Of a stretch of 32,239 nucleotides of DNA, positions 1,958 to 28,391 are shown one piece after another. Under the pieces are notes generated by a model. It was not told the DNA's origin, made no database searches, and saw nothing but the letters and a program-made list of their open reading frames with translations. Position 1 is the first letter of the stretch; each line of letters begins with the position of its first letter. This stretch comes from a virus (Duplodnaviria; Heunggongvirae; Uroviricota; Caudoviricetes). Both the position numbers and the translations under genes were made by a program. Where the stretch lies: the IMG/VR virus record IMGVR_UViG_2645727843_000011; one strand, written 5' to 3'.

Positions 1958-4405
1958 TTAACCGTCATGCATCATGCTGGCACGGGCACGCGCACGTTTA
2001 TCCCGCTCGTATTTTTCGAGCGCATCCTGTAACTGGCGGTCAAGCTGTGTCCCCGGCGCAGTACCACCCGTCAGGCTGATGTGATATTCGTTTTTACTCT
2101 GGTCCACATAAGAGCGGCCAGCCAGTGCCGTGACTGGCTGATAAGCCTGATAGCCTGCATAAGAGCTGGTCGCCGGAATATAACCACCGGTGCCATACGT
2201 GGCGGCATGAGTTCTGGCGGCGGTCTGGTCAAGTGTGTCTGACTCTTTGTTGATGACCCCGAGCTTTTCCAGTACCCAGTCAATACCGCTGCGCAGTTTG
2301 TTGAACGCATTAAGCGGCAGCATCAGCGCGTCAGCCAGTGCCTGCCCGAACATGACGCCCGTGTCACGGCAACGGTTCAGGGTGTCCTGGGTGGCTTTAA
2401 CCGGGGCAATCAGGTTTTTAAACCACTGCCACGCGGCCTGTAACTTTTCACCCAGCCAGTCAAACAGCGGCTTAAGTGGCGTGAACAGTTCCCCCACCGG
2501 CGCAAATGCCGCTTTCAGCCCTTCAACCACACCGCCAAAGAATGCGCTGACAGGCTCCCAGTATTTACGGATAAGTAACGCCCCGGCGACAATAGCGGCC
2601 ACCACGGCCACAACCGGCCAGCTAATCGCCCCGATGGCCGTCATAACGGCACTGCCAACCGTCGTGAAGATTGCCCCCATTGCGCCTGCTGCCGCGATGA
2701 TGGCATTGATGCCGGTGATAACCGGCCAGGCGACAAGACCAATGGCACCGATGATGCCAGTAAGCGCCAGCGCGCCACCGGCAATGAGGCCAATGGTTGA
2801 CGCCAGTGATTTGTTTTTCTGTATCCAGCCGTCGAGTTTTAACACATACTTTGTGGCCGTCTGTGTGAGCTTACGCAGTGCGCCTTCCTGCTGGTCAAAC
2901 AGGTCAGTCCCCACCGCCTCATAAGCGGACTGAAACTCCTTAAAGTCACCGCCGAGGTTGTCCTGCATGATATTTACCAGCTCTGCGGTCTTCCCGTCTG
3001 AGGCTTTAAACGCAGCGGTCAGTTTGTCCAGCTTTCCGGTTGAGGCGGCAGTCATCAGCACGGCGGCGGCTGAGCTGGCCTCCTCCCCGAAAATAGTTTT
3101 CATGTATTCAGCCTGCTGGGCAGTACCGAGCCGGTTTTTCTCAAAACTGGCCTGCATTTCTTTCAGAATGGTAAATACTGGTCGGGTGTTTCCCTTGCTG
3201 TCTGAGGTTTTCACACCAAGCTCTTTCAGTGCATCCCACGCTTTTCCCGTCGGTGCCTGCAGGCGGCTTAACACGGCACGGCTTCCCGTCCCCGCCATTG
3301 AGCCTGTGATTTTTGCATCATGCAGCGCCCCGACCATTGCGGCGGTTTCTTCAATGCTGACACCGGCATTTTTTGCCACAGGTGCGGCATAGGTCAGCGC
3401 ATCGCTCATGCCGTCAAAATCGGCGGCGGTTTTGTTCATCGTCATGGAGAGAACATCCCCGATATGAGCGACCTTATCGTTTGAAAGCTGAAAGGCGGAT
3501 TTCATCCCCATCAGCAGGGCGGCGTTTTCTTCCATCGTGCGACGGTTCGCCAGCGCCATATTCAGCGTGACCGGCGTTGCCGCCTGAATGGCATCAACAT
3601 CCCCACCGGCTTTTGCAATGATAATCTGCGCACCGGCTGCATCATCCGCCGAGGCGGCGGTGTTGTCGCCGAGCTGGCGCGCCTGTTTGCGGAGCGCGGC
3701 CATTTCGGCGGAGTCTTTTGCCACGCCGAGCACAGCCTGTAATTCTGAGTTTTTCTGCGCAAACTCATAACCGGGCATCAGCAGCTTAACTCCGGCCATC
3801 GTTCCCGCCGCCGCAATCCCCACACCGGCAGCGCCCACTGAGGCCATATTTCCGGCCAGTTCCTTTCCGGCCTGATAACGCTGTTTGACTGCGTTAAGTT
3901 TTGCCTGTTGCGCACTGACACGCGCCAGCGCGTCACGCTGCCGGTTAAGCTGCGCGGTGGTTTCACTGATACGGTTTTTCAGCCCCTGCTCATCATGTGC
4001 AAGATTGCGGGTATTAATTCCCACAGCAGCCAGTTCCCGCTGCTGGCGTTTAACGGAATCCGTCAGGCGGTTATATTTCGCCTGTAAGTCCTCCGCCGCT
4101 CGCTTTGCGGATTCCAGCACTTTCGCCTGAGCACGGGTCGGACGTTCGGTATTTTTAAACTGTGTGGCAAGGGCTTCGGCTTCCAGCCGTGCCTTCTCAA
4201 GTGCATGACCAGTCACGGCGAGCTGTGCGCTGGTCTTGCGAAATCCCTCAATACGGGATGCGTGACCGTTCAGCTCGCGCAGTGATTTTTGTGTGTCCCG
4301 GATATCCCCCGACAGCGACTTGCTCGCTGTACGGATGGATTTAAACGGGCGGGATGCCTGGTCAACAGCCCTGAGCAATACCTGTAATTTTACATTGTTA
4401 CTCAT
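1958..4405 (-). CDS. T: Tail tape measure protein gpT, 815 aa
   Basis: 815-aa ORF, coiled-coil-rich N-terminal half and Ala/Gly-rich hydrophobic stretches typical of tape measure proteins; ATG at 4403..4405; follows E/E'. Confidence 0.9.
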   Translation of the reverse strand: MSNNVKLQVLLRAVDQASRPFKSIRTASKSLSGDIRDTQKSLRELNGHASRIEGFRKTSAQLAVTGHALEKARLEAEALATQFKNTERPTRAQAKVLESAKRAAEDLQAKYNRLTDSVKRQQRELAAVGINTRNLAHDEQGLKNRISETTAQLNRQRDALARVSAQQAKLNAVKQRYQAGKELAGNMASVGAAGVGIAAAGTMAGVKLLMPGYEFAQKNSELQAVLGVAKDSAEMAALRKQARQLGDNTAASADDAAGAQIIIAKAGGDVDAIQAATPVTLNMALANRRTMEENAALLMGMKSAFQLSNDKVAHIGDVLSMTMNKTAADFDGMSDALTYAAPVAKNAGVSIEETAAMVGALHDAKITGSMAGTGSRAVLSRLQAPTGKAWDALKELGVKTSDSKGNTRPVFTILKEMQASFEKNRLGTAQQAEYMKTIFGEEASSAAAVLMTAASTGKLDKLTAAFKASDGKTAELVNIMQDNLGGDFKEFQSAYEAVGTDLFDQQEGALRKLTQTATKYVLKLDGWIQKNKSLASTIGLIAGGALALTGIIGAIGLVAWPVITGINAIIAAAGAMGAIFTTVGSAVMTAIGAISWPVVAVVAAIVAGALLIRKYWEPVSAFFGGVVEGLKAAFAPVGELFTPLKPLFDWLGEKLQAAWQWFKNLIAPVKATQDTLNRCRDTGVMFGQALADALMLPLNAFNKLRSGIDWVLEKLGVINKESDTLDQTAARTHAATYGTGGYIPATSSYAGYQAYQPVTALAGRSYVDQSKNEYHISLTGGTAPGTQLDRQLQDALEKYERDKRARARASMMHDG

Positions 4406-4881: not shown

Positions 4882-5400
4882 TCACAGGCCGATATTTCGG
4901 CGGTGTTGCTCCAGCCGGTCGACGCCGTTCACCTTCTCAATCATGTTGATGGTGTCGATTTCGACCAGCTCCTTACCGTCCATCGTCAGCCGGAAATAAG
5001 TACAAATCACCGGGAGTTTCGATTCGGTATCCTCTCCCTGTTTACCCTCTCCGGTGTCGACTTCTTTCTGACGCCCACGCATGACCACTTCGACGGCCAC
5101 CGTTTCGCCGGTATCGTCGCGCTGGTAAGAACCAGCAAAACGAATCGGTACGGCATCAGCACTGGTTGCAGCGTAAAGCTCCCAGATAACCGAATCCGGG
5201 AACCCCCCGAGCGACCACTCCATTGACAGCGCATCGTCATCAAGGCCGAGGTCTACCGGTGCGCTGCCGTTCATCCCCGCACCGCGATAATTTTCGAGCT
5301 TACGGGTCAGTTTTGGCAGCGTGACGGACGTTGCAACGCCCTGATAGCTGTAGCCGTTCAGAAAGACATTCATGTATTTGAGTTTGCGCGGCATTGCCAT
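4882..5400 (-). CDS. FII: Tail tube protein gpFII, 172 aa
   Basis: 172-aa ORF, ATG at 5398..5400, immediately downstream of FI as in P2. Confidence 0.9.
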   Translation of the reverse strand: MAMPRKLKYMNVFLNGYSYQGVATSVTLPKLTRKLENYRGAGMNGSAPVDLGLDDDALSMEWSLGGFPDSVIWELYAATSADAVPIRFAGSYQRDDTGETVAVEVVMRGRQKEVDTGEGKQGEDTESKLPVICTYFRLTMDGKELVEIDTINMIEKVNGVDRLEQHRRNIGL

Positions 5401-5412
5401 CGGTCAGGCTCC

Positions 5413-6603
5413 TTAATTGCTGTTAACCGAGGTGACCAGATTTGCCAGGTATTTATCGGTAATACGCTGGCGCAGGGTCAGGTTTTCGAGAGGAGGCACC
5501 GGGGTATAGTCGTAGTCGATATACAGTTTTCCGGCCTTGAGGGTTTCCGCATCGTTGGATTCTTCGCTGAACCAGCAGGTCGCATCCACGATATAGCCGT
5601 TTGTTTTCAGCTCTCGGAATTTGGCATTGATGCCGTCAACGATGTCGCGAATCAGCGTTGCGGTGATGGGCTTGTCCACCGCCCACATGTGCGCCTCAGC
5701 CATCGTGTCGGCCAGCACCTGCGCGGTGCGGGTGTAGTTTTCAAAGAGGAACAGCGGGTCATCAGAGCAGGTACGGTTACCCCAGAAGCGGAAACCGTCA
5801 CGGCGAATCAGCGTTGTGACGCCTGACTCGTTAAGCAGGTCAGCATCGGTGCCGGACTCCTGCAAATCCCAGAATACGGACGCGCTGATGCCGGTAACAC
5901 CGTTTACCCCGACGTTGGACAGCGTTTTATGCCAGCCCTGCTCCTGGTCGATTTTAGCGCGCAGACCCAGCGCACGGGCGGTGGCATACGCGGTGGCGGT
6001 GGTACTGGTGACCGTATCCCATGCGAGGAAATCCGGCCAGATGACCATCAGCTCACGCTGGCTGAAATTCTGGCGGTAGGCTTTCACCTCGGAAATGGTC
6101 TTACAGCCCCATGCGCTGATATATCCGAAAGCGCGCAGCTTCTGACAGACGGATGCCAGTGCAACAGCCACCTCTTTGGTATCCAGTCCCGGCACACCGA
6201 GAATACGCGGTTTAACACCGGTTACCGACTCCGCCGCCAGCAGGGCTTTTAGTCCGGTGTACTGACCGTTTTCGTCGGTAGTGCCGATGATATTGGAAAC
6301 GGTCTGCGCGAGTTTCGTTTCCTCGTCATCACCGGTGCCGTCTTCCACGCGCACGACAACGGTGACCGGTTTTGACTGGTCAGCGATGGCCTGCAACGAT
6401 GCCGCCAGCGTGCCTTTTTTACCGGCCTTTGCAATTGCGCTTTGCACATTGGTAATCAGCACCGGTTTATTGAGGGGGAAGGTTTCCGCATCCGCATCGC
6501 TGGCCGTGCAGACCATGCCGACAATGGCAGTGGATACGGTGGAAATGACGCGGGTGCCGTCGTTAATCTCCAGCACCTGCACGCCATGATGATAGTCACT
6601 CAT
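5413..6603 (-). CDS. FI: Contractile tail sheath protein gpFI, 396 aa
   Basis: 396-aa ORF beginning MSDYHHGVQVLEINDGTRVISTVSTA..., ATG at 6601..6603; length and position match P2 FI. Confidence 0.9.
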   Translation of the reverse strand: MSDYHHGVQVLEINDGTRVISTVSTAIVGMVCTASDADAETFPLNKPVLITNVQSAIAKAGKKGTLAASLQAIADQSKPVTVVVRVEDGTGDDEETKLAQTVSNIIGTTDENGQYTGLKALLAAESVTGVKPRILGVPGLDTKEVAVALASVCQKLRAFGYISAWGCKTISEVKAYRQNFSQRELMVIWPDFLAWDTVTSTTATAYATARALGLRAKIDQEQGWHKTLSNVGVNGVTGISASVFWDLQESGTDADLLNESGVTTLIRRDGFRFWGNRTCSDDPLFLFENYTRTAQVLADTMAEAHMWAVDKPITATLIRDIVDGINAKFRELKTNGYIVDATCWFSEESNDAETLKAGKLYIDYDYTPVPPLENLTLRQRITDKYLANLVTSVNSN

Positions 6604-6694
6604 CCGTTTAACTCCGTGGTTAATGGGTGCAACTATTTTCTGTTGTGCAGAGCATAAGACGCTATTTGACCTGGCTGGTCAGTGGATGAAACAA
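6604..6694 (-). promoter_or_regulatory. Putative late promoter region for the FI operon (PF-equivalent)
   Basis: Non-coding interval between the intrinsic terminator at 6695..6726 and the FI start; P2 has an Ogr-dependent late promoter upstream of FI (established knowledge); exact -10 and Ogr dyad not resolved by eye. Confidence 0.35.
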
Positions 6695-6726
6695 CAGATA
6701 AAGAAAAGGCGGGCAATTCGCCCGCC
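6695..6726 (-). terminator. Rho-independent terminator on the - strand upstream of FI
   Basis: On the - strand: GGCGGGC-GAATT-GCCCGCC followed by TTTTCTTTATCTG; perfect 7-bp GC stem and U-rich tail. Confidence 0.6.
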
Positions 6727-6786
6727 TGTCCTGATTTGTACTCACTCATTTTCCGCCTGACAATTTACATAGCCCAAATGCTATCA

Positions 6787-6802
6787 AATCTGACAGTCTG
6801 CT
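6787..6802 (+). repeat. Copy A of 16-bp site aatctgacagtctgct (putative recombinase site or cassette boundary)
   Basis: Exact 16-mer shared with the reverse complement of 9220..9235; 11-bp core ctgacagtctg shared with 9099..9109. Confidence 0.6.
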
Positions 6803-6933
6803 TTGAGCGAAAAGTGGACATTAGAGTTACAAAAGCAAGTTTAAATCATCCAAAATATTACAATGTCCTTATCTATCTGATATCGTTATGATAAAAAGCT
6901 CCTGAATATAATCGATAGTAGGTGGTTATTTCC

Positions 6934-7311
6934 ATGAAATCAATTTTAGAGGTTTTTACTCAAGGAAATACTAAAGAAAAACTGGCTGTTATCGCCGATC
7001 TCACAACCATTGCGGGAATATCGATTGCAACTATTATTGCTGGTTTGTTAACCCTAGTTGCAAAAACAGATAAACTAGATGTTGGAAATCTGTTTGGAGT
7101 TGTCATAATATCTCTGCTCGGATTGGCTGGTGTTTGCTGTTTTGTGGCCTTATTTATTTGGGTTATAACCCAAATGTCTAAACCATGGGGAACACCTCGG
7201 GGGGTTCAGCCCTTAGTTAAGTGTGCTATTTCCCTTATCTTTATCTGTATGTTTTTGCTGGCTGTCTTTACATTTTATGAGTTTATTTCTTCGATGAGCA
7301 TACGCTATTGA
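6934..7311 (+). CDS. Small hydrophobic membrane protein (about 125 aa, 3-4 predicted TM segments), cargo gene
   Basis: ORF 6922..7311 in the track begins with GTG; the first ATG at 6934 follows a GGTGG RBS with 8-nt spacing; translation is dominated by hydrophobic stretches (IAGISIATIIAGLLTLVA, GVVIISLLGLAGVCCFVALFIWVI, ISLIFICMFLLAVFTF); AT-rich. Confidence 0.6.
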   Translation: MKSILEVFTQGNTKEKLAVIADLTTIAGISIATIIAGLLTLVAKTDKLDVGNLFGVVIISLLGLAGVCCFVALFIWVITQMSKPWGTPRGVQPLVKCAISLIFICMFLLAVFTFYEFISSMSIRY

Positions 7312-7333
7312 ATATAAAATCAGCCCCCATAAC

Positions 7334-7918
7334 TTAAAAGAGACCTTCTATATCGACTTCAATGCCCAAATAACGGACTGTGCTTTCCAGTTTCTTATGG
7401 CCCAACAGAAGTTGGATCACCCAGAGACTCTTGGTTTTCTTGTAGATTAAGTAAGGTTTTGTTCTTCTCATGGAATGTGTGCTGTACAGCGAATCTTCGA
7501 GACCAAGCTTTTCTACCCACCCATGAAAAATTCGGTTGTATTGCCGGGTTGATATATGGTGGTTAGTTCCGACCCGAGAGCGGAACAGGAAGCCTTTACT
7601 ATGCCAGTTGCCGAGCTTTATCAATGCAGTAACCGCTTCCCTTGTCCCTTTGGTTATCTCAAATTGGACAGGGCTGCCGGTTTTCTGTTGCAACACCGTT
7701 GCTCTGCTTGAGACAGAACTGCCATATGCAGCATCTGATACTTTGAGTTTGACCAAATCACAGCCCCGTAGCTTAGTGTCCAAAGCCATGTTGAACAGAG
7801 CTAGATCGCGTGTTTTACCTTCCAACTCAAGTCTAATCCGGATCCCCCAGATATGAGATATCTGAAGTGGCCTTTTTTGACCGATGGTACGGTCTTTATT
7901 CCACGGTGACGTTTTCAT
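7334..7918 (-). CDS. Short tyrosine site-specific recombinase, FimB/FimE-like (about 194 aa from the ATG at 7918; the track ORF extends to 8020 from a TTG)
   Basis: Translation carries the tyrosine recombinase catalytic signature: Arg box (LDTKLRGCDLVKLKVSD), KTG lysine, HSMRRT (HxxR) and LLGH...TVRYL with the catalytic Tyr; size is that of FimB/FimE-type invertases rather than a 330-400 aa phage integrase; AGGAG RBS 9 nt before the ATG at 7916..7918. Confidence 0.7.
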   Translation of the reverse strand: MKTSPWNKDRTIGQKRPLQISHIWGIRIRLELEGKTRDLALFNMALDTKLRGCDLVKLKVSDAAYGSSVSSRATVLQQKTGSPVQFEITKGTREAVTALIKLGNWHSKGFLFRSRVGTNHHISTRQYNRIFHGWVEKLGLEDSLYSTHSMRRTKPYLIYKKTKSLWVIQLLLGHKKLESTVRYLGIEVDIEGLF

Positions 7919-7920
7919 AT

Positions 7921-7949
7921 TCAAATCTCCTGCAATGTGGGAGATTTGA
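7921..7949 (-). promoter_or_regulatory. RNA hairpin sequestering the recombinase Shine-Dalgarno
   Basis: 10-bp perfect inverted repeat tcaaatctcc (7921..7930) and ggagatttga (7940..7949) with a 9-nt loop; on the - strand mRNA the SD GGAG lies in the 3' arm, 2 nt before the ATG. Confidence 0.45.
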
Positions 7950-8024
7950 GTATGGTTGTCTCTCAAGAGCGAAAATAAGTCAACTATCACTAGTTGTTGC
8001 GCATGTACGTATTCTGTCAATTAA

Positions 8025-8867
8025 TTATTGACAATCATCAATTCTGGAATGATCAAAATCATCATATCGAATTATAGTCTGGTTGACTGTATCTATTGTT
8101 GGTGTCATTTCTGTTATAATATCCTGATAACCTAAAGAGTTAAATACATTTACTAAGGCCTCACACCGAAGGGCCGTAGCAATTACAAAATTATAAATTG
8201 CCAGCCGTTTATTTTCTTGTTTAACTGCAAGAATGAATTCGATAGAAGTATTTTCATCACTTTGGATTGCATTATATAGAGATACTATATTTACCATATC
8301 ATCAGAGAATGTATGTATTGAATCACAAAGGGGAACGTAATGGGCATGATAGTGTGTTTCCCAGCCAATTAATTCAAAAAGTTTTCTGGTTCCTGGATAT
8401 TCAGGTGTATTTGGCCACAATCTATTAAATAGATCAGTTAGTTCTTTTCCCATGCGAATCCTTTCATTTGCTGCTGGATTAGTCATTCCTTTGGATTTTA
8501 AACACTCCAGCCACCGTTTTCCATTACTATGAACTAATTTCTTACTAGCCTTGAGTAATGCTTGTGCATTTTCGCCATCATCTATTGCTATATAAAATTG
8601 ATTGGCAGCCTGTTCTATTATAACCCTAGCTAATACTTCCGATGCTGAAAAGGCTCCTATATTCAAAGAAGAGATAGCCTGATTACTAAGTTCATTCAGT
8701 ACATTAAAGTACTGTAAGACCATCAATTTTTGTTCCACACCCTTTAGGTTGTCTATTTTATTTTTATGCTCCTCAAATTTTGCATGGATATATTTATTTA
8801 TCGCGGCTATTTTTTTTACATCTTCGTCAAGATCAAACGGGCAACGTCCAAACAATTCTTTTTTCAT
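8025..8867 (-). CDS. Hypothetical protein, 280 aa, AT-rich cargo gene upstream of the recombinase
   Basis: 280-aa ORF, ATG at 8865..8867 with an AGGAG RBS; no family recognised by eye; same strand as the recombinase gene, which follows 106 bp downstream. Confidence 0.6.
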   Translation of the reverse strand: MKKELFGRCPFDLDEDVKKIAAINKYIHAKFEEHKNKIDNLKGVEQKLMVLQYFNVLNELSNQAISSLNIGAFSASEVLARVIIEQAANQFYIAIDDGENAQALLKASKKLVHSNGKRWLECLKSKGMTNPAANERIRMGKELTDLFNRLWPNTPEYPGTRKLFELIGWETHYHAHYVPLCDSIHTFSDDMVNIVSLYNAIQSDENTSIEFILAVKQENKRLAIYNFVIATALRCEALVNVFNSLGYQDIITEMTPTIDTVNQTIIRYDDFDHSRIDDCQ

Positions 8868-24810: not shown

Positions 24811-25746
24811 CTATTTGCTTAACAATTTATCATTTGGTGTAGCCTCAATAACCCTAATATCCAAGTCTAAATATGCAAAAATCGCACGCGCTTTGGCACA
24901 AAATTTTTGGTCTTTACTCAAAATAGCATCACAATAAATAGCCATAGCGGTGTGGTTCGCATCACTTAAAATGCCAGGCATTTTTTCAATACGGTTAAGC
25001 CCCTTGTCAGGGTGGAAACCCAGAAAATTAAGAACAGTATGGCAACCTACAACTCCCAAATATAAAGGCCACTCTTCATAACCCTGTTTATTCAGTGGGT
25101 CAAATCCATAGAATTGATCAATTGTTATTCCCTGATAATTATCACGCAACATATCCCATATCAGCTTCAAGGGATTATCCTTTATTGAAAGGTTACTTGC
25201 CCTACCGTTACCGGTGCCGATTGCCGCACGTGACGTTACCAGGCTTTGAGCATTCTGTAATTGCCCGTGAGTAACTAACTTAATGTCTTCAACTGCCTGT
25301 TCTATCTGAGATTCAATTTCGTCAGTGATGAGGTCATGTGGTGATAAGAGAGCATAAAGAAACTCTTTTAATTTATTATGTTGATGAAGAATTTCACTGT
25401 AATTATCTGCGCCAGCTAACCGTATCAAAAACTGCATTTGTGATTGTATGCATTCATCAACATGGATTTCATTGATGTTATCAAGCCACTGCTGATACAT
25501 ATCCTTTGGCTCACAATAATCATGAAGAAATGCACGCCCGGTAAGCCTAAATTGATTATCGAATTCGAGTTCCAACTTTCTTGCTTTAAGCTGTCTCAAC
25601 ACATCTAAAAATCGCATATCTCTAGCGCGTTTTATTTCATTGAAGTTTTCGTCAGAATAAACCCATATCGTGTCATCAGGCACTTCTAAGGTCATTCTAT
25701 TCTTGCTTAGGTCGTCCAAAATATTGTGGTCAAGATAAATCTTCAT
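24811..25746 (-). CDS. Hypothetical protein, 311 aa, AT-rich cargo gene at the tin/old-equivalent position
   Basis: 311-aa ORF, ATG at 25744..25746 with a GAGGTG RBS; no recognisable family by eye; lies between A and cos where P2 carries orf91, tin and old. Confidence 0.65.
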   Translation of the reverse strand: MKIYLDHNILDDLSKNRMTLEVPDDTIWVYSDENFNEIKRARDMRFLDVLRQLKARKLELEFDNQFRLTGRAFLHDYCEPKDMYQQWLDNINEIHVDECIQSQMQFLIRLAGADNYSEILHQHNKLKEFLYALLSPHDLITDEIESQIEQAVEDIKLVTHGQLQNAQSLVTSRAAIGTGNGRASNLSIKDNPLKLIWDMLRDNYQGITIDQFYGFDPLNKQGYEEWPLYLGVVGCHTVLNFLGFHPDKGLNRIEKMPGILSDANHTAMAIYCDAILSKDQKFCAKARAIFAYLDLDIRVIEATPNDKLLSK

Positions 25747-26105
25747 AACACCTCAACGTGACGTTGGGAAACATTACCAATACGCGAAATTTCTGATTCT
25801 AATGATATCTTACTTTTCCCATGTCATAGCTAACGCCTCGCGGGCTCGTTGTTCATCCCGACCAGCACTGAAAGAGAGTTTCAGCATCGACGGCGTTTTC
25901 TTTGGTCAGATAGATCACCTCCCTTCGAAGCAACCATACCCCTTCACCATGCACTTATTGTTTATAAAAACAGCCGTGATTTTCAGCTCTGTTGCTATCC
26001 GTTCCTCACTGTCTTTGCGGTCTTGCTCACCCGCCCAACAAAGAAGCAGTAAGAAAAGCCACAGCCCAGCAATCTACCCAACAATAACACAGATTTTTCT
26101 CACAA

Positions 26106-28391
26106 TTACCCCCATTCATATATACCAGTAAACCCCGGCCACTCATCAGCAACAGGATATGTGAATTTCTGCCCGTCGTATATCACAGACGCCCCGCGCG
26201 CCAGCGCCTCAAGCTCCCATCGCTGCGGCCTGATACCGTTCTGAGCAAGGTCAACGCGGATACGGGTAATTTGCATTCGTTCCGGCCGGGTCAGCCTGGC
26301 CGATGGTGCCATTTCATGCGGTTTTAACGGGCTTCCGTTTCTTTGCTGACGATTTGGTGTTCTCAGTCCGTGTTTTAATGCACCTCTGAGCGCCCTCACG
26401 ACCTCCGGGTCATTCCATTCGATAACACCGTCATCAACCAGATTAAGCACTGCTGCGGCGTGTTCAGAAGGTGTGGGAGCCGGTAACGAAGTATCACCAC
26501 CGGTGACCTTTCCACAGTTATTGACAGGACTCCGAGGCGCGGCGATGCCGCTTTTTAAAGTCAAAGGCTCAACGACCGGCACTTTCGGAACAATGCGCCA
26601 GTCCGTCGTTCTGGTGATATGAATATGACGCGCGCCGAGATGCGGCGCGTAAATGCCGACCACTCTCTCGACTTCTTCCTCGTACTCGTTAACTTCATCC
26701 GACGGACTACGGGCGACCCTGACAGTCTGACAATCGCGCGGGACATTTGCCCCACCCTGCGCGCTGATATACAGCGCAAAATCGCCACTGTCTGCGGCAG
26801 CGCGTGCAGCCTCGACGCGTTCGTCAAACTCATCAGCAATGCTGACGCCGCGAGGCAATTTGCGTAGTTCACGGTAAGCCCCCATTGTCGGCAGGCCAAC
26901 CGTTTTAAATTGCGGAATGCGCCACGTTGACGCCCATGCGGTAACAGCCGCGGCAGTGTCTTTCAGCGGCCTGCCGGTATCGTTATCGAGCTGACCATCC
27001 AGTGCATAGCCGTCGATGTTTTTTGAAATGTATTTCGCGATATATCCCGCAGCACCGCCCCGGTTAAGGTGTTTTGCCTGAAAACGGTTTCGCGCAGCTC
27101 CTCTTTCGTCGCCATCCTCTTTGAGCGCGTAGCGACGCATGATTTCAATAATCTGGTTACGCTGGCGTGGATGACAAAAAAGCATCATATGCCAGTGCGG
27201 CGTTCCGTCGTGGTGTGGCTCGACGACACGCAAACCGTAGACCTGTAAATCATTATCCTTGAATGCCGTGCGCATCAGGCTCCAGATGCGGCAGAGATAA
27301 CGCTGCGCATCCTTTGGATTAAATGCCTCATCATTCCAGCCGTGATTAAGCTGGACGGTTTTATTTTCGCCTTTTCCAACCTGACGTGTCGGGTGATACT
27401 TTGACGGCGCGGTAAGCGTGATAAACATCCCCACATCACCCTCTGCGGCGGCGTAATGCTCAATACCGGCGATGGTGTTCATCAGCTCCATCCGGCGAAT
27501 TTCAGGATTAGAAATACTGCCCATCACCTTACTGATAAGGTCGATGCGCTCGCCGGTTTCCCTGTTTTCAAGGTCACACGATTTAAGAAATTCCAGATTT
27601 GCCTGGCGGCGTGCACGTACATCACGAATGGCATGTTTACTGGCATAAGGAGAACGGTCTTTATTCACCTCCCCGACAGCAATCAGTAACGCCTCATGCC
27701 AGCGCATACGCTGGCCTTTAAGCTGATGAGTCCACCACTCATCGTTAAACAGACGGGCAATGGCAGAATATGCCTGCCTCGTGGTTATCTGTCCTTTACG
27801 GTATTTTTTCCAGTAGAGCGGGGAAATATTGAAAGCACGTGCAGCGCCAGCAACATGACCATACAGATGATCCTGCGCCTCATCCGTAAACAGCGATTCT
27901 TTTTCGCCATGCGCATCCACCCAGGCATCGCAGAGTTCCTCATACATCATGAAAAGCTGCGATGAGATACGGGCGGCAAACTTTTTCAGCTCCTTGTCAT
28001 TCATCCCCGGCAGACGCGCATAATGGTCACGCTCTGCCAGAAACAGCAACGACGCGTCGGTGTTCATTTCATGGCGCTGATTCACACGCTCAATGCGCGG
28101 CCATAAACGACGCTGAAAAGTGGATGTGAGAAAATAAAACCCGTGCACCGGGCTTTTATTGCGCCGGATGTAGTCATAGCGTGAAGTAAACAGCGAGCGC
28201 AAAAAGTAAGGCAGGCGGTTAATCGTGGATAAAACACCTTGCACCTGACGCATCTCGTCACGTGTAAGGGGTCTTTCGCGCCCGACAGCCTCGCGTGGCG
28301 CGTTCCATGCATAAGCACCGGTAAACGTCTTACCGGTGCCTGCGGCAAATGCTGACGGAGGGACAAAGCGCCCGGAGGCTTTAACGGCCAT
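26106..28391 (-). CDS. A: Replication initiation protein gpA (rolling-circle nickase), 761 aa
   Basis: Translation from ATG at 28389..28391: MAVKASGRFVPPSAFAAGTGKTFTGAYAWNAPREA...; the track ORF is extended to 28433. Confidence 0.9.
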   Translation of the reverse strand: MAVKASGRFVPPSAFAAGTGKTFTGAYAWNAPREAVGRERPLTRDEMRQVQGVLSTINRLPYFLRSLFTSRYDYIRRNKSPVHGFYFLTSTFQRRLWPRIERVNQRHEMNTDASLLFLAERDHYARLPGMNDKELKKFAARISSQLFMMYEELCDAWVDAHGEKESLFTDEAQDHLYGHVAGAARAFNISPLYWKKYRKGQITTRQAYSAIARLFNDEWWTHQLKGQRMRWHEALLIAVGEVNKDRSPYASKHAIRDVRARRQANLEFLKSCDLENRETGERIDLISKVMGSISNPEIRRMELMNTIAGIEHYAAAEGDVGMFITLTAPSKYHPTRQVGKGENKTVQLNHGWNDEAFNPKDAQRYLCRIWSLMRTAFKDNDLQVYGLRVVEPHHDGTPHWHMMLFCHPRQRNQIIEIMRRYALKEDGDERGAARNRFQAKHLNRGGAAGYIAKYISKNIDGYALDGQLDNDTGRPLKDTAAAVTAWASTWRIPQFKTVGLPTMGAYRELRKLPRGVSIADEFDERVEAARAAADSGDFALYISAQGGANVPRDCQTVRVARSPSDEVNEYEEEVERVVGIYAPHLGARHIHITRTTDWRIVPKVPVVEPLTLKSGIAAPRSPVNNCGKVTGGDTSLPAPTPSEHAAAVLNLVDDGVIEWNDPEVVRALRGALKHGLRTPNRQQRNGSPLKPHEMAPSARLTRPERMQITRIRVDLAQNGIRPQRWELEALARGASVIYDGQKFTYPVADEWPGFTGIYEWG

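Follow-up and report, generated by a model that had tools for sequence, protein, structure and literature searches.

The 32,239-nt stretch of DNA analysed here (the window, whose full length sets all positions given below unless another locus is named) is a P2-like prophage of Escherichia coli, and our subject is an open reading frame (ORF) of 843 nt on its minus strand, at 8025-8867, that encodes a 280-residue protein of the DUF5677 family. The ORF is surrounded by minus-strand tail genes: those for the tape measure protein (1958-4405), tail tube FII (4882-5400) and tail sheath FI (5413-6603) on one side, and those for tail fibre assembly protein G (9288-9815) and tail fibre H (9819-11924) on the other. 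FI and G are separated by an AT-rich island of 2.7 kb, whose GC content is 0.33-0.46, as against 0.55-0.60 in the backbone, and whose flanks correspond to the left and right inverted repeats that the P2-EC58 Z-region record annotates. In P2 this G-FI interval is known as the classical Z/fun moron site (PMC3573123). Vassallo et al. 2022 described it as a second defence-enriched P2 locus that holds fun and three validated systems (PMC9519451), and a 2026 survey lists it among the P2 defence hotspots (PMC13586616). The DUF5677 gene has the attributes of a Z/fun moron, since it lies between G and FI, inside the conserved inverted repeats, and is foreign in composition. Like fun(Z) and the other morons of this second hotspot, with which it has the slot and the inverted repeats of the P2-EC58 Z record in common, it is an AT-rich single gene with its own expression signals at a documented anti-phage reservoir; it differs from them in that the cargo came with a recombinase gene.

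We confirmed that the ORF is a real, conserved gene: the Prokaryotic Genome Annotation Pipeline (PGAP) calls the same ORF in E. coli S88, where the RefSeq locus is essentially identical, homologues are found at 41-99% identity, the ratio of nonsynonymous to synonymous substitution rates (dN/dS) among close variants is 0.24-0.37, a sign of purifying selection, and the AlphaFold2 model is confident. An earlier note on this DNA had pointed to an AGGAG ribosome-binding site, and it is indeed present at 8874-8878 on the minus strand, 6 nt upstream of the ATG at 8867. Further upstream on that strand, a perfect TATAAT (8906-8911) with a weak -35 element, conserved by alignment in the E2348/69 copy, is likely to be the gene's own promoter. 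A consensus promoter scan, which found fewer sites overall than in shuffled sequence, did not call this box because its -35 element is poor. The non-coding leader of the DUF5677 module (8868-9202, minus strand) is found with the gene elsewhere too, at 89-97% identity, and belongs to a 420-nt non-coding stretch that holds inverted site copies, in agreement with the repeat-flanked intergenic region that had been noticed upstream. The GC content of the gene is 33.9% (24.6% at third codon positions), compared with 45% for the recombinase gene, 56.6% for tail sheath FI, approximately 57% for the backbone and 51.4% over the window as a whole. In the protein, L, I, A, N, K and E are the most frequent residues, so that the foreign, AT-rich character attributed to it earlier, with I, N and K prominent, was correctly perceived. 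It is a soluble, cytoplasmic protein with a predicted isoelectric point of 5.7, and it has no signal peptide and no membrane or hydrophobic segment (maximum 19-residue hydropathy, 1.35).

The earlier note had left the protein in an unrecognised family, which proved not to be the case. Residues 50-194 align with positions 4-158 of the 166-position Pfam profile PF18928 (DUF5677) at 40.2 bits, above the cut-off of 27.1, and the whole protein matches phrog_4167 end to end; neither family carries a functional annotation. All 54 aligned relatives match PF18928, and no other family is matched consistently, in line with the earlier statement that the protein could be assigned to no known nuclease, ATPase or nucleotidyltransferase family. 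Close homologues have 99, 86, 53 and 41-44% identity. The family is rare and patchy: when 1.84 billion cluster representatives were searched with a profile, only 80 relatives were retrieved, all of them single-domain proteins and the full-length ones mostly of ∼270-310 residues. A scan of a genome collection with a shallow DUF5677 alignment found only two loci, and no match to the protein came from a tblastn search of 50,697 phage records.

Across the 54 relatives, R81, E85, F164, Y173 and H185 are invariant, and N89, W119, P158, S183, D190, N193 and Y225 are nearly so. Structure prediction with AlphaFold2 from an alignment of the relatives gave a confident all-alpha model, a ten-helix bundle with a predicted local distance difference score (pLDDT) of 94.8 and a predicted template-modelling score (pTM) of 0.92. 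In this model R81, E85 and N89 lie on one helical face and S183, H185, D190 and N193 on a helix-turn-helix, and the conserved polar cluster that they form has the appearance of an active site or of a site for ligand binding. The search for a functional relative by remote homology was negative at each level: Foldseek of the model against the PDB and BFVD returned nothing below E = 0.06, profile searches of PDB sequences with the family gave no meaningful match, and hhalign of the family against the defence proteins HEC-08 and PD-T7-1 yielded probabilities below 1%, that is, no detectable homology.

The gene reached the locus by insertion. Two kinds of imperfect 24-bp palindrome, GTCCGC..GCGGAC, mark the region: type A, GTCCGCTCCTGGCACAGAGCGGAC, and type B, GTCCGyTCCTCGCTCAnAGCGGAC, and in the P2 locus the A and B cores are each followed by TGTCAGATT. 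Of the two inverted repeats of the P2 Z region, the right one is a type-A site on the plus strand (GTCCGCTCCTAGCACAGAGCAGACTGTCAGATTAG, 9203-9237), and the left one is a type-B site on the minus strand (GTCCACTTTTCGCTCAAAGCAGACTGTCAGATTTG, 6785-6819). Within the DUF5677 module, at 9096-9123 on the plus strand, there is a further, degenerate version of the site tail, AAGCTGACAGTCTGGTTTGGACTGTGAG. The motif containing CTGACAGTCTG is found as inverted copies at 9096-9123 and 9208-9235 and as a third copy at 6787-6805, three matches against 0.01 expected. In E. coli Ec1119, a P2-like prophage carries at the equivalent locus only a membrane gene, and a 1851-bp block comprising the recombinase and DUF5677 genes (7353-9203) replaces, in the window, 325 bp of that Z locus. 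The right junction of the block falls exactly at the core GTCCGCTCCTAGCACAGAGC (9203), at the type-A site. The left junction, which lies in the membrane gene's terminator hairpin, costs the recombinase gene its last 12 codons and the site usually present after its stop codon. In the simplest history, the block would have integrated site-specifically at the right-hand site and then been immobilised by a deletion, an order that we infer. A small unit, consisting of a tyrosine recombinase gene of some 200 codons and one cargo gene, would have integrated at the palindrome bounding the right side of the Z/fun hotspot, and a later deletion would have taken the 3′ end of the recombinase gene and the proximal site, fixing the block in place.

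The recombinase gene lies directly downstream of the DUF5677 gene on the same strand, as had been observed before (7334-7918 on the minus strand, 194 residues from the PGAP start MKTSPW; longest ORF, 7334-8020). Its product matches Pfam Phage_integrase at 1.9e-16, and the motifs LRGCD, HSMRRT, LLGH and RY fit the pattern R..HxxR..H..Y, a catalytic assignment made by inspection. The canonical C-terminus, ..DDALEISESIEV, is replaced in the window by ..DIEGLF, and to the left of 7352 the gene departs from every other copy; with its last 12 codons and the 3′-proximal A-type half site replaced there, it is not part of a full-length mobile unit. A minus-strand hairpin at 7916-7954 pairs the recombinase GGAG and ATG (centroid energy -16.3 kcal/mol, z = -2.4) and is kept in every recombinase copy examined, which suggests that it silences translation of the recombinase. 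Alignment also places a degenerate B-type core, TTTTCGCTCTTGAGAGAC, between the two genes (7958-7975, minus strand); this core is intact in other contexts, for example as GTCCACTCCTCGCTCATAAGGGAC in EC25. Since the recombinase is of the size of FimB/E and inverted repeats lie upstream, a fim-like invertible promoter switch was considered and rejected: the likely promoter at 8906-8911 is outside the repeat-bounded segment, and 25 of the 25 listed genome copies are collinear and in a single piece.

The DUF5677-recombinase unit is found in three backbones. The P2-like version is present as 36 near-identical genome copies. In lambdoid prophages such as that of E2348/69 the unit has 89% nucleotide identity, its recombinase gene is frameshifted, and the Septu genes PtuA/PtuB come next. 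In the passenger region of a Buttiauxella Tn3-family transposon the unit has 96.6% identity and an intact recombinase gene. The lambdoid loci (L027, 4557-6552; L008-L013) are arranged as the DUF5677-pseudorecombinase unit, PtuA (457 residues) and PtuB (211 residues), followed by hokD and rem, and in several strains an IS3 or IS481 element lies at the edges of this DUF5677/Septu hotspot. A short cargo block in both a P2-like tail region and lambdoid prophages has a reported precedent, in that Mirold et al. are said to have described in 2001 a sopE moron cassette common to the P2-like SopE-phi and lambdoid Salmonella phages; the cargo is different.

Analysis of homologue neighbourhoods, judged for the distant homologues by the Pfam families of the adjoining genes, revealed cargo regions rich in defence genes. 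In the window and nine other independent contexts, the surroundings of DUF5677 are of the type that holds anti-phage systems. One distant homologue lies in the lambdoid hotspot after lambda gene P, beside DUF4365, NADAR+PRTase-CE and a GAPS4-type PDDEXK gene; another, on a plasmid or integrative and conjugative element (ICE) island, lies between Beta_protein+Peptidase_M78+P4 cII-like genes and SMODS+SLATT genes of the type found in CBASS (anti-phage signalling based on cyclic oligonucleotides). Two more are Tn7-like cargo beside an MmeI-type restriction-modification gene, one adjoins a Cap4-nuclease gene and an SMC-type ATPase gene, and Lamassu-type genes are among the neighbours. A conserved downstream partner was sought in the distant homologues, and the neighbouring proteins (237, 198 and 102 residues) had no PADLOC match. 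The vehicle itself carries established defence genes elsewhere. In EC25 the recombinase gene divergently adjoins PD-T7-1, in the same lambdoid hotspot as the E2348/69 unit, and in Nissle it divergently adjoins HEC-08. PD-T7-1 is an experimentally validated single-gene defence (PMC9519451), as is HEC-08, whose canonical HEPN motif, Rx4-6H, is required for defence. Both occupy a position equivalent to that of DUF5677, beside the same recombinase of 200 residues (88-91% nucleotide identity) and bounded by A and B sites, PD-T7-1 in the lambdoid hotspot and HEC-08 in a genomic island. On this genomic evidence, the pattern is that expected of a defence gene.

We propose that the DUF5677 gene is a candidate stand-alone, single-gene anti-phage factor, a proposal that we hold to be evenly balanced between right and wrong and that is based on its location in a P2 hotspot, its foreign origin, its insertion and mobility, its defence-rich neighbourhoods, the carriage of validated defence cargo by the same vehicle, and the properties of a family that is rare, patchy and under purifying selection and has a conserved polar cluster in a confident model. 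The protein would be an accessory, moron-type product expressed in the lysogen from its own promoter, and would act as a single-gene defence or exclusion factor that shields its host from other phages. Its most plausible activity would be that of an infection-triggered hydrolase of the HEPN-like ribonuclease kind, for which the nearest known systems are the HEPN-domain abortive-infection RNases of the AbiV, AbiD/F and HEC-08 type. This is a weakly supported lead and not a result: the all-alpha fold has only a weak resemblance to HEPN, and although R81 is invariant, position 86 is His in only 17 of the 54 members and Gln in 15, including the window protein. If DUF5677 does defend, it would be a family missed by all current defence-finding tools, with a fold and conserved residues unlike those of known effectors.

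Several observations weigh against this proposal. No family among the 5027 models of PADLOC-DB 2.0 was hit at E ≤ 1, so that the protein has no sequence relation to PADLOC models, those of PD-T4, PD-T7 and PD-lambda included, and it has no NCBIfam match. The HEPN signature that HEC-08 possesses is not a feature of the DUF5677 family: no R-x4-6-H is conserved in the 54 members, and none of them matches a Pfam HEPN family. The recombinase also adjoins arsenic, copper and redox cargo in integrative elements and ICEs, so its adjacency is not specific to defence. The 36 P2-borne copies, among them extraintestinal and avian pathogenic strains (S88, APEC O1:K1:H7 and APEC O2:K1:H7), may owe their number to clonal descent and not to selection. 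Finally, in the only published test of a DUF5677 protein, protection was obtained with five of nine candidates, and the Bacillota homologue, expressed in Enterococcus faecalis and challenged with six phages, was not one of them (PMC12632615); the homologue is distant and the phage panel narrow, and we therefore regard this result as weak evidence.

The first alternative is that DUF5677 is a lysogenic-conversion factor unrelated to phage, acting in host fitness or virulence, or a counter-defence protein that aids the prophage. We consider this quite unlikely. In its favour, the same P2 moron position 2 also holds neaT, an acyltransferase that promotes fitness in bacteraemia (PMC3573123), and MS7163 joins S88 and the APEC O1/O2:K1:H7 strains in the list of P2-borne copies; the gene is also co-directional with the late tail operons, which makes expression during lytic growth possible. 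However, the homologues belong to Tn7-like, plasmid/ICE and lambdoid cargo, among defence genes and in environmental as well as enteric bacteria, and not to virulence loci. The lack of a signal peptide or membrane segment in the protein, and of secretion-related genes among its neighbours, also argues against such a role.

A second alternative, which we judge improbable, is that DUF5677 works with the adjacent recombinase as an accessory factor of site-specific recombination, in directionality, excision or site choice. The two genes are co-directional and 106 nt apart, they travel jointly in P2-like, lambdoid and Tn3-family backbones, and the core that separates them has degenerated in each of these backbones, so that they behave as one unit. 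In addition, Bacillota DUF5677 genes are statistically enriched beside serine recombinases, with which co-transcription is predicted, and the gene assayed in E. faecalis was picked because of that enrichment (PMC12632615). Association with two unrelated classes of recombinase, however, fits cargo and vehicle better than a specific partnership. The recombinase gene (7352-7972) is present in ∼850 of 5426 complete E. coli genomes at 88-91% nucleotide identity, and ∼800 of these lack DUF5677; only 55 have it beside the recombinase gene, which is nearly always accompanied by other cargo. Conversely, a 94%-identical DUF5677 copy in BS0013 and all homologues of 24-53% identity, indeed all below 86%, have no adjacent recombinase gene, and DUF5677 remains intact and under purifying selection where the recombinase gene is frameshifted or truncated. 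Known directionality factors are small and basic proteins, unlike a 280-residue acidic helical bundle. Because the recombinase mostly keeps other company, distant DUF5677 genes stand without it, and it has decayed in the window and in the lambdoid copies, we read the recombinase from these genomes as the vehicle and DUF5677 as its cargo, and not the two as partners in function. The earlier description of the gene as the effector of the cassette therefore stands in so far as it is foreign cargo of a repeat-bounded, recombinase-linked block in defence-type surroundings, and falls in so far as it implied a functional partnership with the recombinase.

Least probable of all, we find, is an addiction-module toxin whose antitoxin RNA or small peptide lies in the 335-nt leader and stabilises the cassette: the leader equals the coding sequence in conservation and is present wherever the gene is, and neighbouring slots of the lambdoid hotspot hold hok-type toxins, but Rfam has no match in 6500-9400, the leader showed no conserved small ORF, upstream regions differ in more distant homologues, and the site remnants in the leader explain its conservation.

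The A and B sites merit consideration in their own right, since they define an architecture that extends well beyond the DUF5677 gene. At every P2 Z locus examined, a B site on the minus strand precedes the cargo and an A site on the plus strand follows it. In SaT040 two such units are joined by an A-to-B junction of ∼66 bp, and in EC25 an array reads, in order, B, a gene for a 326-residue protein, A, the recombinase gene, B, PD-T7-1, an A-to-B junction, a gene for a 314-residue protein, and A. The recombinase gene sits inside an A/B junction, with an A-type half site after its stop codon and a B-type core before the conserved hairpin. The PD-T7-1 unit also occurs without the recombinase gene, beside a type II restriction-modification system, and homology stops at the B and A cores; in other genomes the recombinase end and the A-to-B junction are kept, with different cargo between them. 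The 35-nt A site is present in ∼2450-2700 of the 5426 E. coli genomes (about half), in one to six copies each and always in intergenic positions. A and B sites bracket single-gene units at locus L030 (1567-1601, 2435-2500 and 3358-3392), locus L024 (4841-4906, 5886-5920 and 9109-9143) and locus L025 (5366-5400, 9548-9613 and 10764-10798). We found no open-access paper containing the site sequence. As a separate observation, A and B cores bound the P2 Z/fun hotspot, the lambdoid hotspot and the Nissle island, and further recombinase copies, in L024, L025 and L026 (6920-7625), are always inside an A/B junction.

Judged from their arrangement, the A/B units look like a natural form of recombinase-mediated cassette exchange. 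Integron cassettes, the pdif modules of Acinetobacter and engineered cassette exchange also consist of single-gene units delimited by short palindromic sites of the tyrosine-recombinase type, and likewise present arrays with a recombinase gene and identical cassettes in unrelated backbones that end at the sites. The differences are clear. The IntI models score the window recombinase at 13-14 bits, against cut-offs of 265-435, and the locus does not classify as an integron; the protein, of ∼200 residues and without an N-terminal domain, is neither IntI nor XerC/D (NCBIfam scores far below cut-offs). The A and B sites are neither attC nor dif, and each cassette lies between two heterotypic, inverted cores, with the recombinase gene inside the A/B junction. 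Site-specific recombination at the P2 Z region was reportedly first proposed by Nilsson et al. in 2004.

Work on the P2/P4 hotspots still lacks a mechanism of exchange (PMC13586616), and cassette exchange, if true, would supply one. A P2 hotspot is bounded by palindromes that also delimit PD-T7-1, HEC-08 and other single-gene units near a widespread minimal recombinase, and the A/B anatomy offers a concrete and testable mechanism for the shuffling of defence genes among unrelated phages, transposons and islands. The architecture of sites and recombinase may deserve more attention than the DUF5677 gene. A bolder combination would make DUF5677 a new single-protein defence family with a new all-alpha catalytic arrangement, an R-E-N helix and an S-x-H..D-x-x-N hairpin, carried by an undescribed A/B cassette system in which the recombinase of 200 residues swaps defence genes among P2 hotspot 2, lambdoid hotspots, transposons and islands; taken as a whole, this is rather unlikely.

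The recombinase family is strongly conserved over many gammaproteobacterial genera, with 75-92% identity in Proteus, Providencia, Pantoea, Idiomarina and Cycloclasticus, and had only distant matches in the 50,697 phage records; a CBS-domain protein is another of its neighbours. The remaining gene of the island, on the plus strand at 6922-7311 and convergent to the recombinase gene, is the resident cassette and encodes a 129-residue membrane protein with three hydrophobic segments that matches phrog_4155 and no Pfam family. It is found in 64 E. coli genomes, ∼28 of which lack the recombinase/DUF5677 block, and in SaT040 it adjoins a DUF6650 cassette. Membrane morons at the Z site could act in exclusion.

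Other parts of the prophage also contain AT-rich accessory genes. Between portal gene Q and replication gene A, the interval that forms the main P2 defence hotspot (the old/tin site), an island with a GC content of ∼0.40 holds a 311-residue ORF on the minus strand (24811-25746), a candidate defence gene that matches neither Pfam nor PADLOC, and a 109-residue ORF on the plus strand (25802-26131). Between baseplate spike gene V and the tail completion genes, and in the opposite orientation to them, lies a plus-strand gene (14434-15219, GC content 0.32) whose 261-residue product has hydrophobic segments and no match in Pfam or PADLOC. Within the minus-strand tail fibre gene H (9819-11924), positions 10760-11400 encode five tandem units of ∼44 residues, ..KGLVQLSSATNS.SETLAATPKAVK.AYDLANGKYTAQDATTAR.., which give rise to a long, internally repetitive stretch of DNA.

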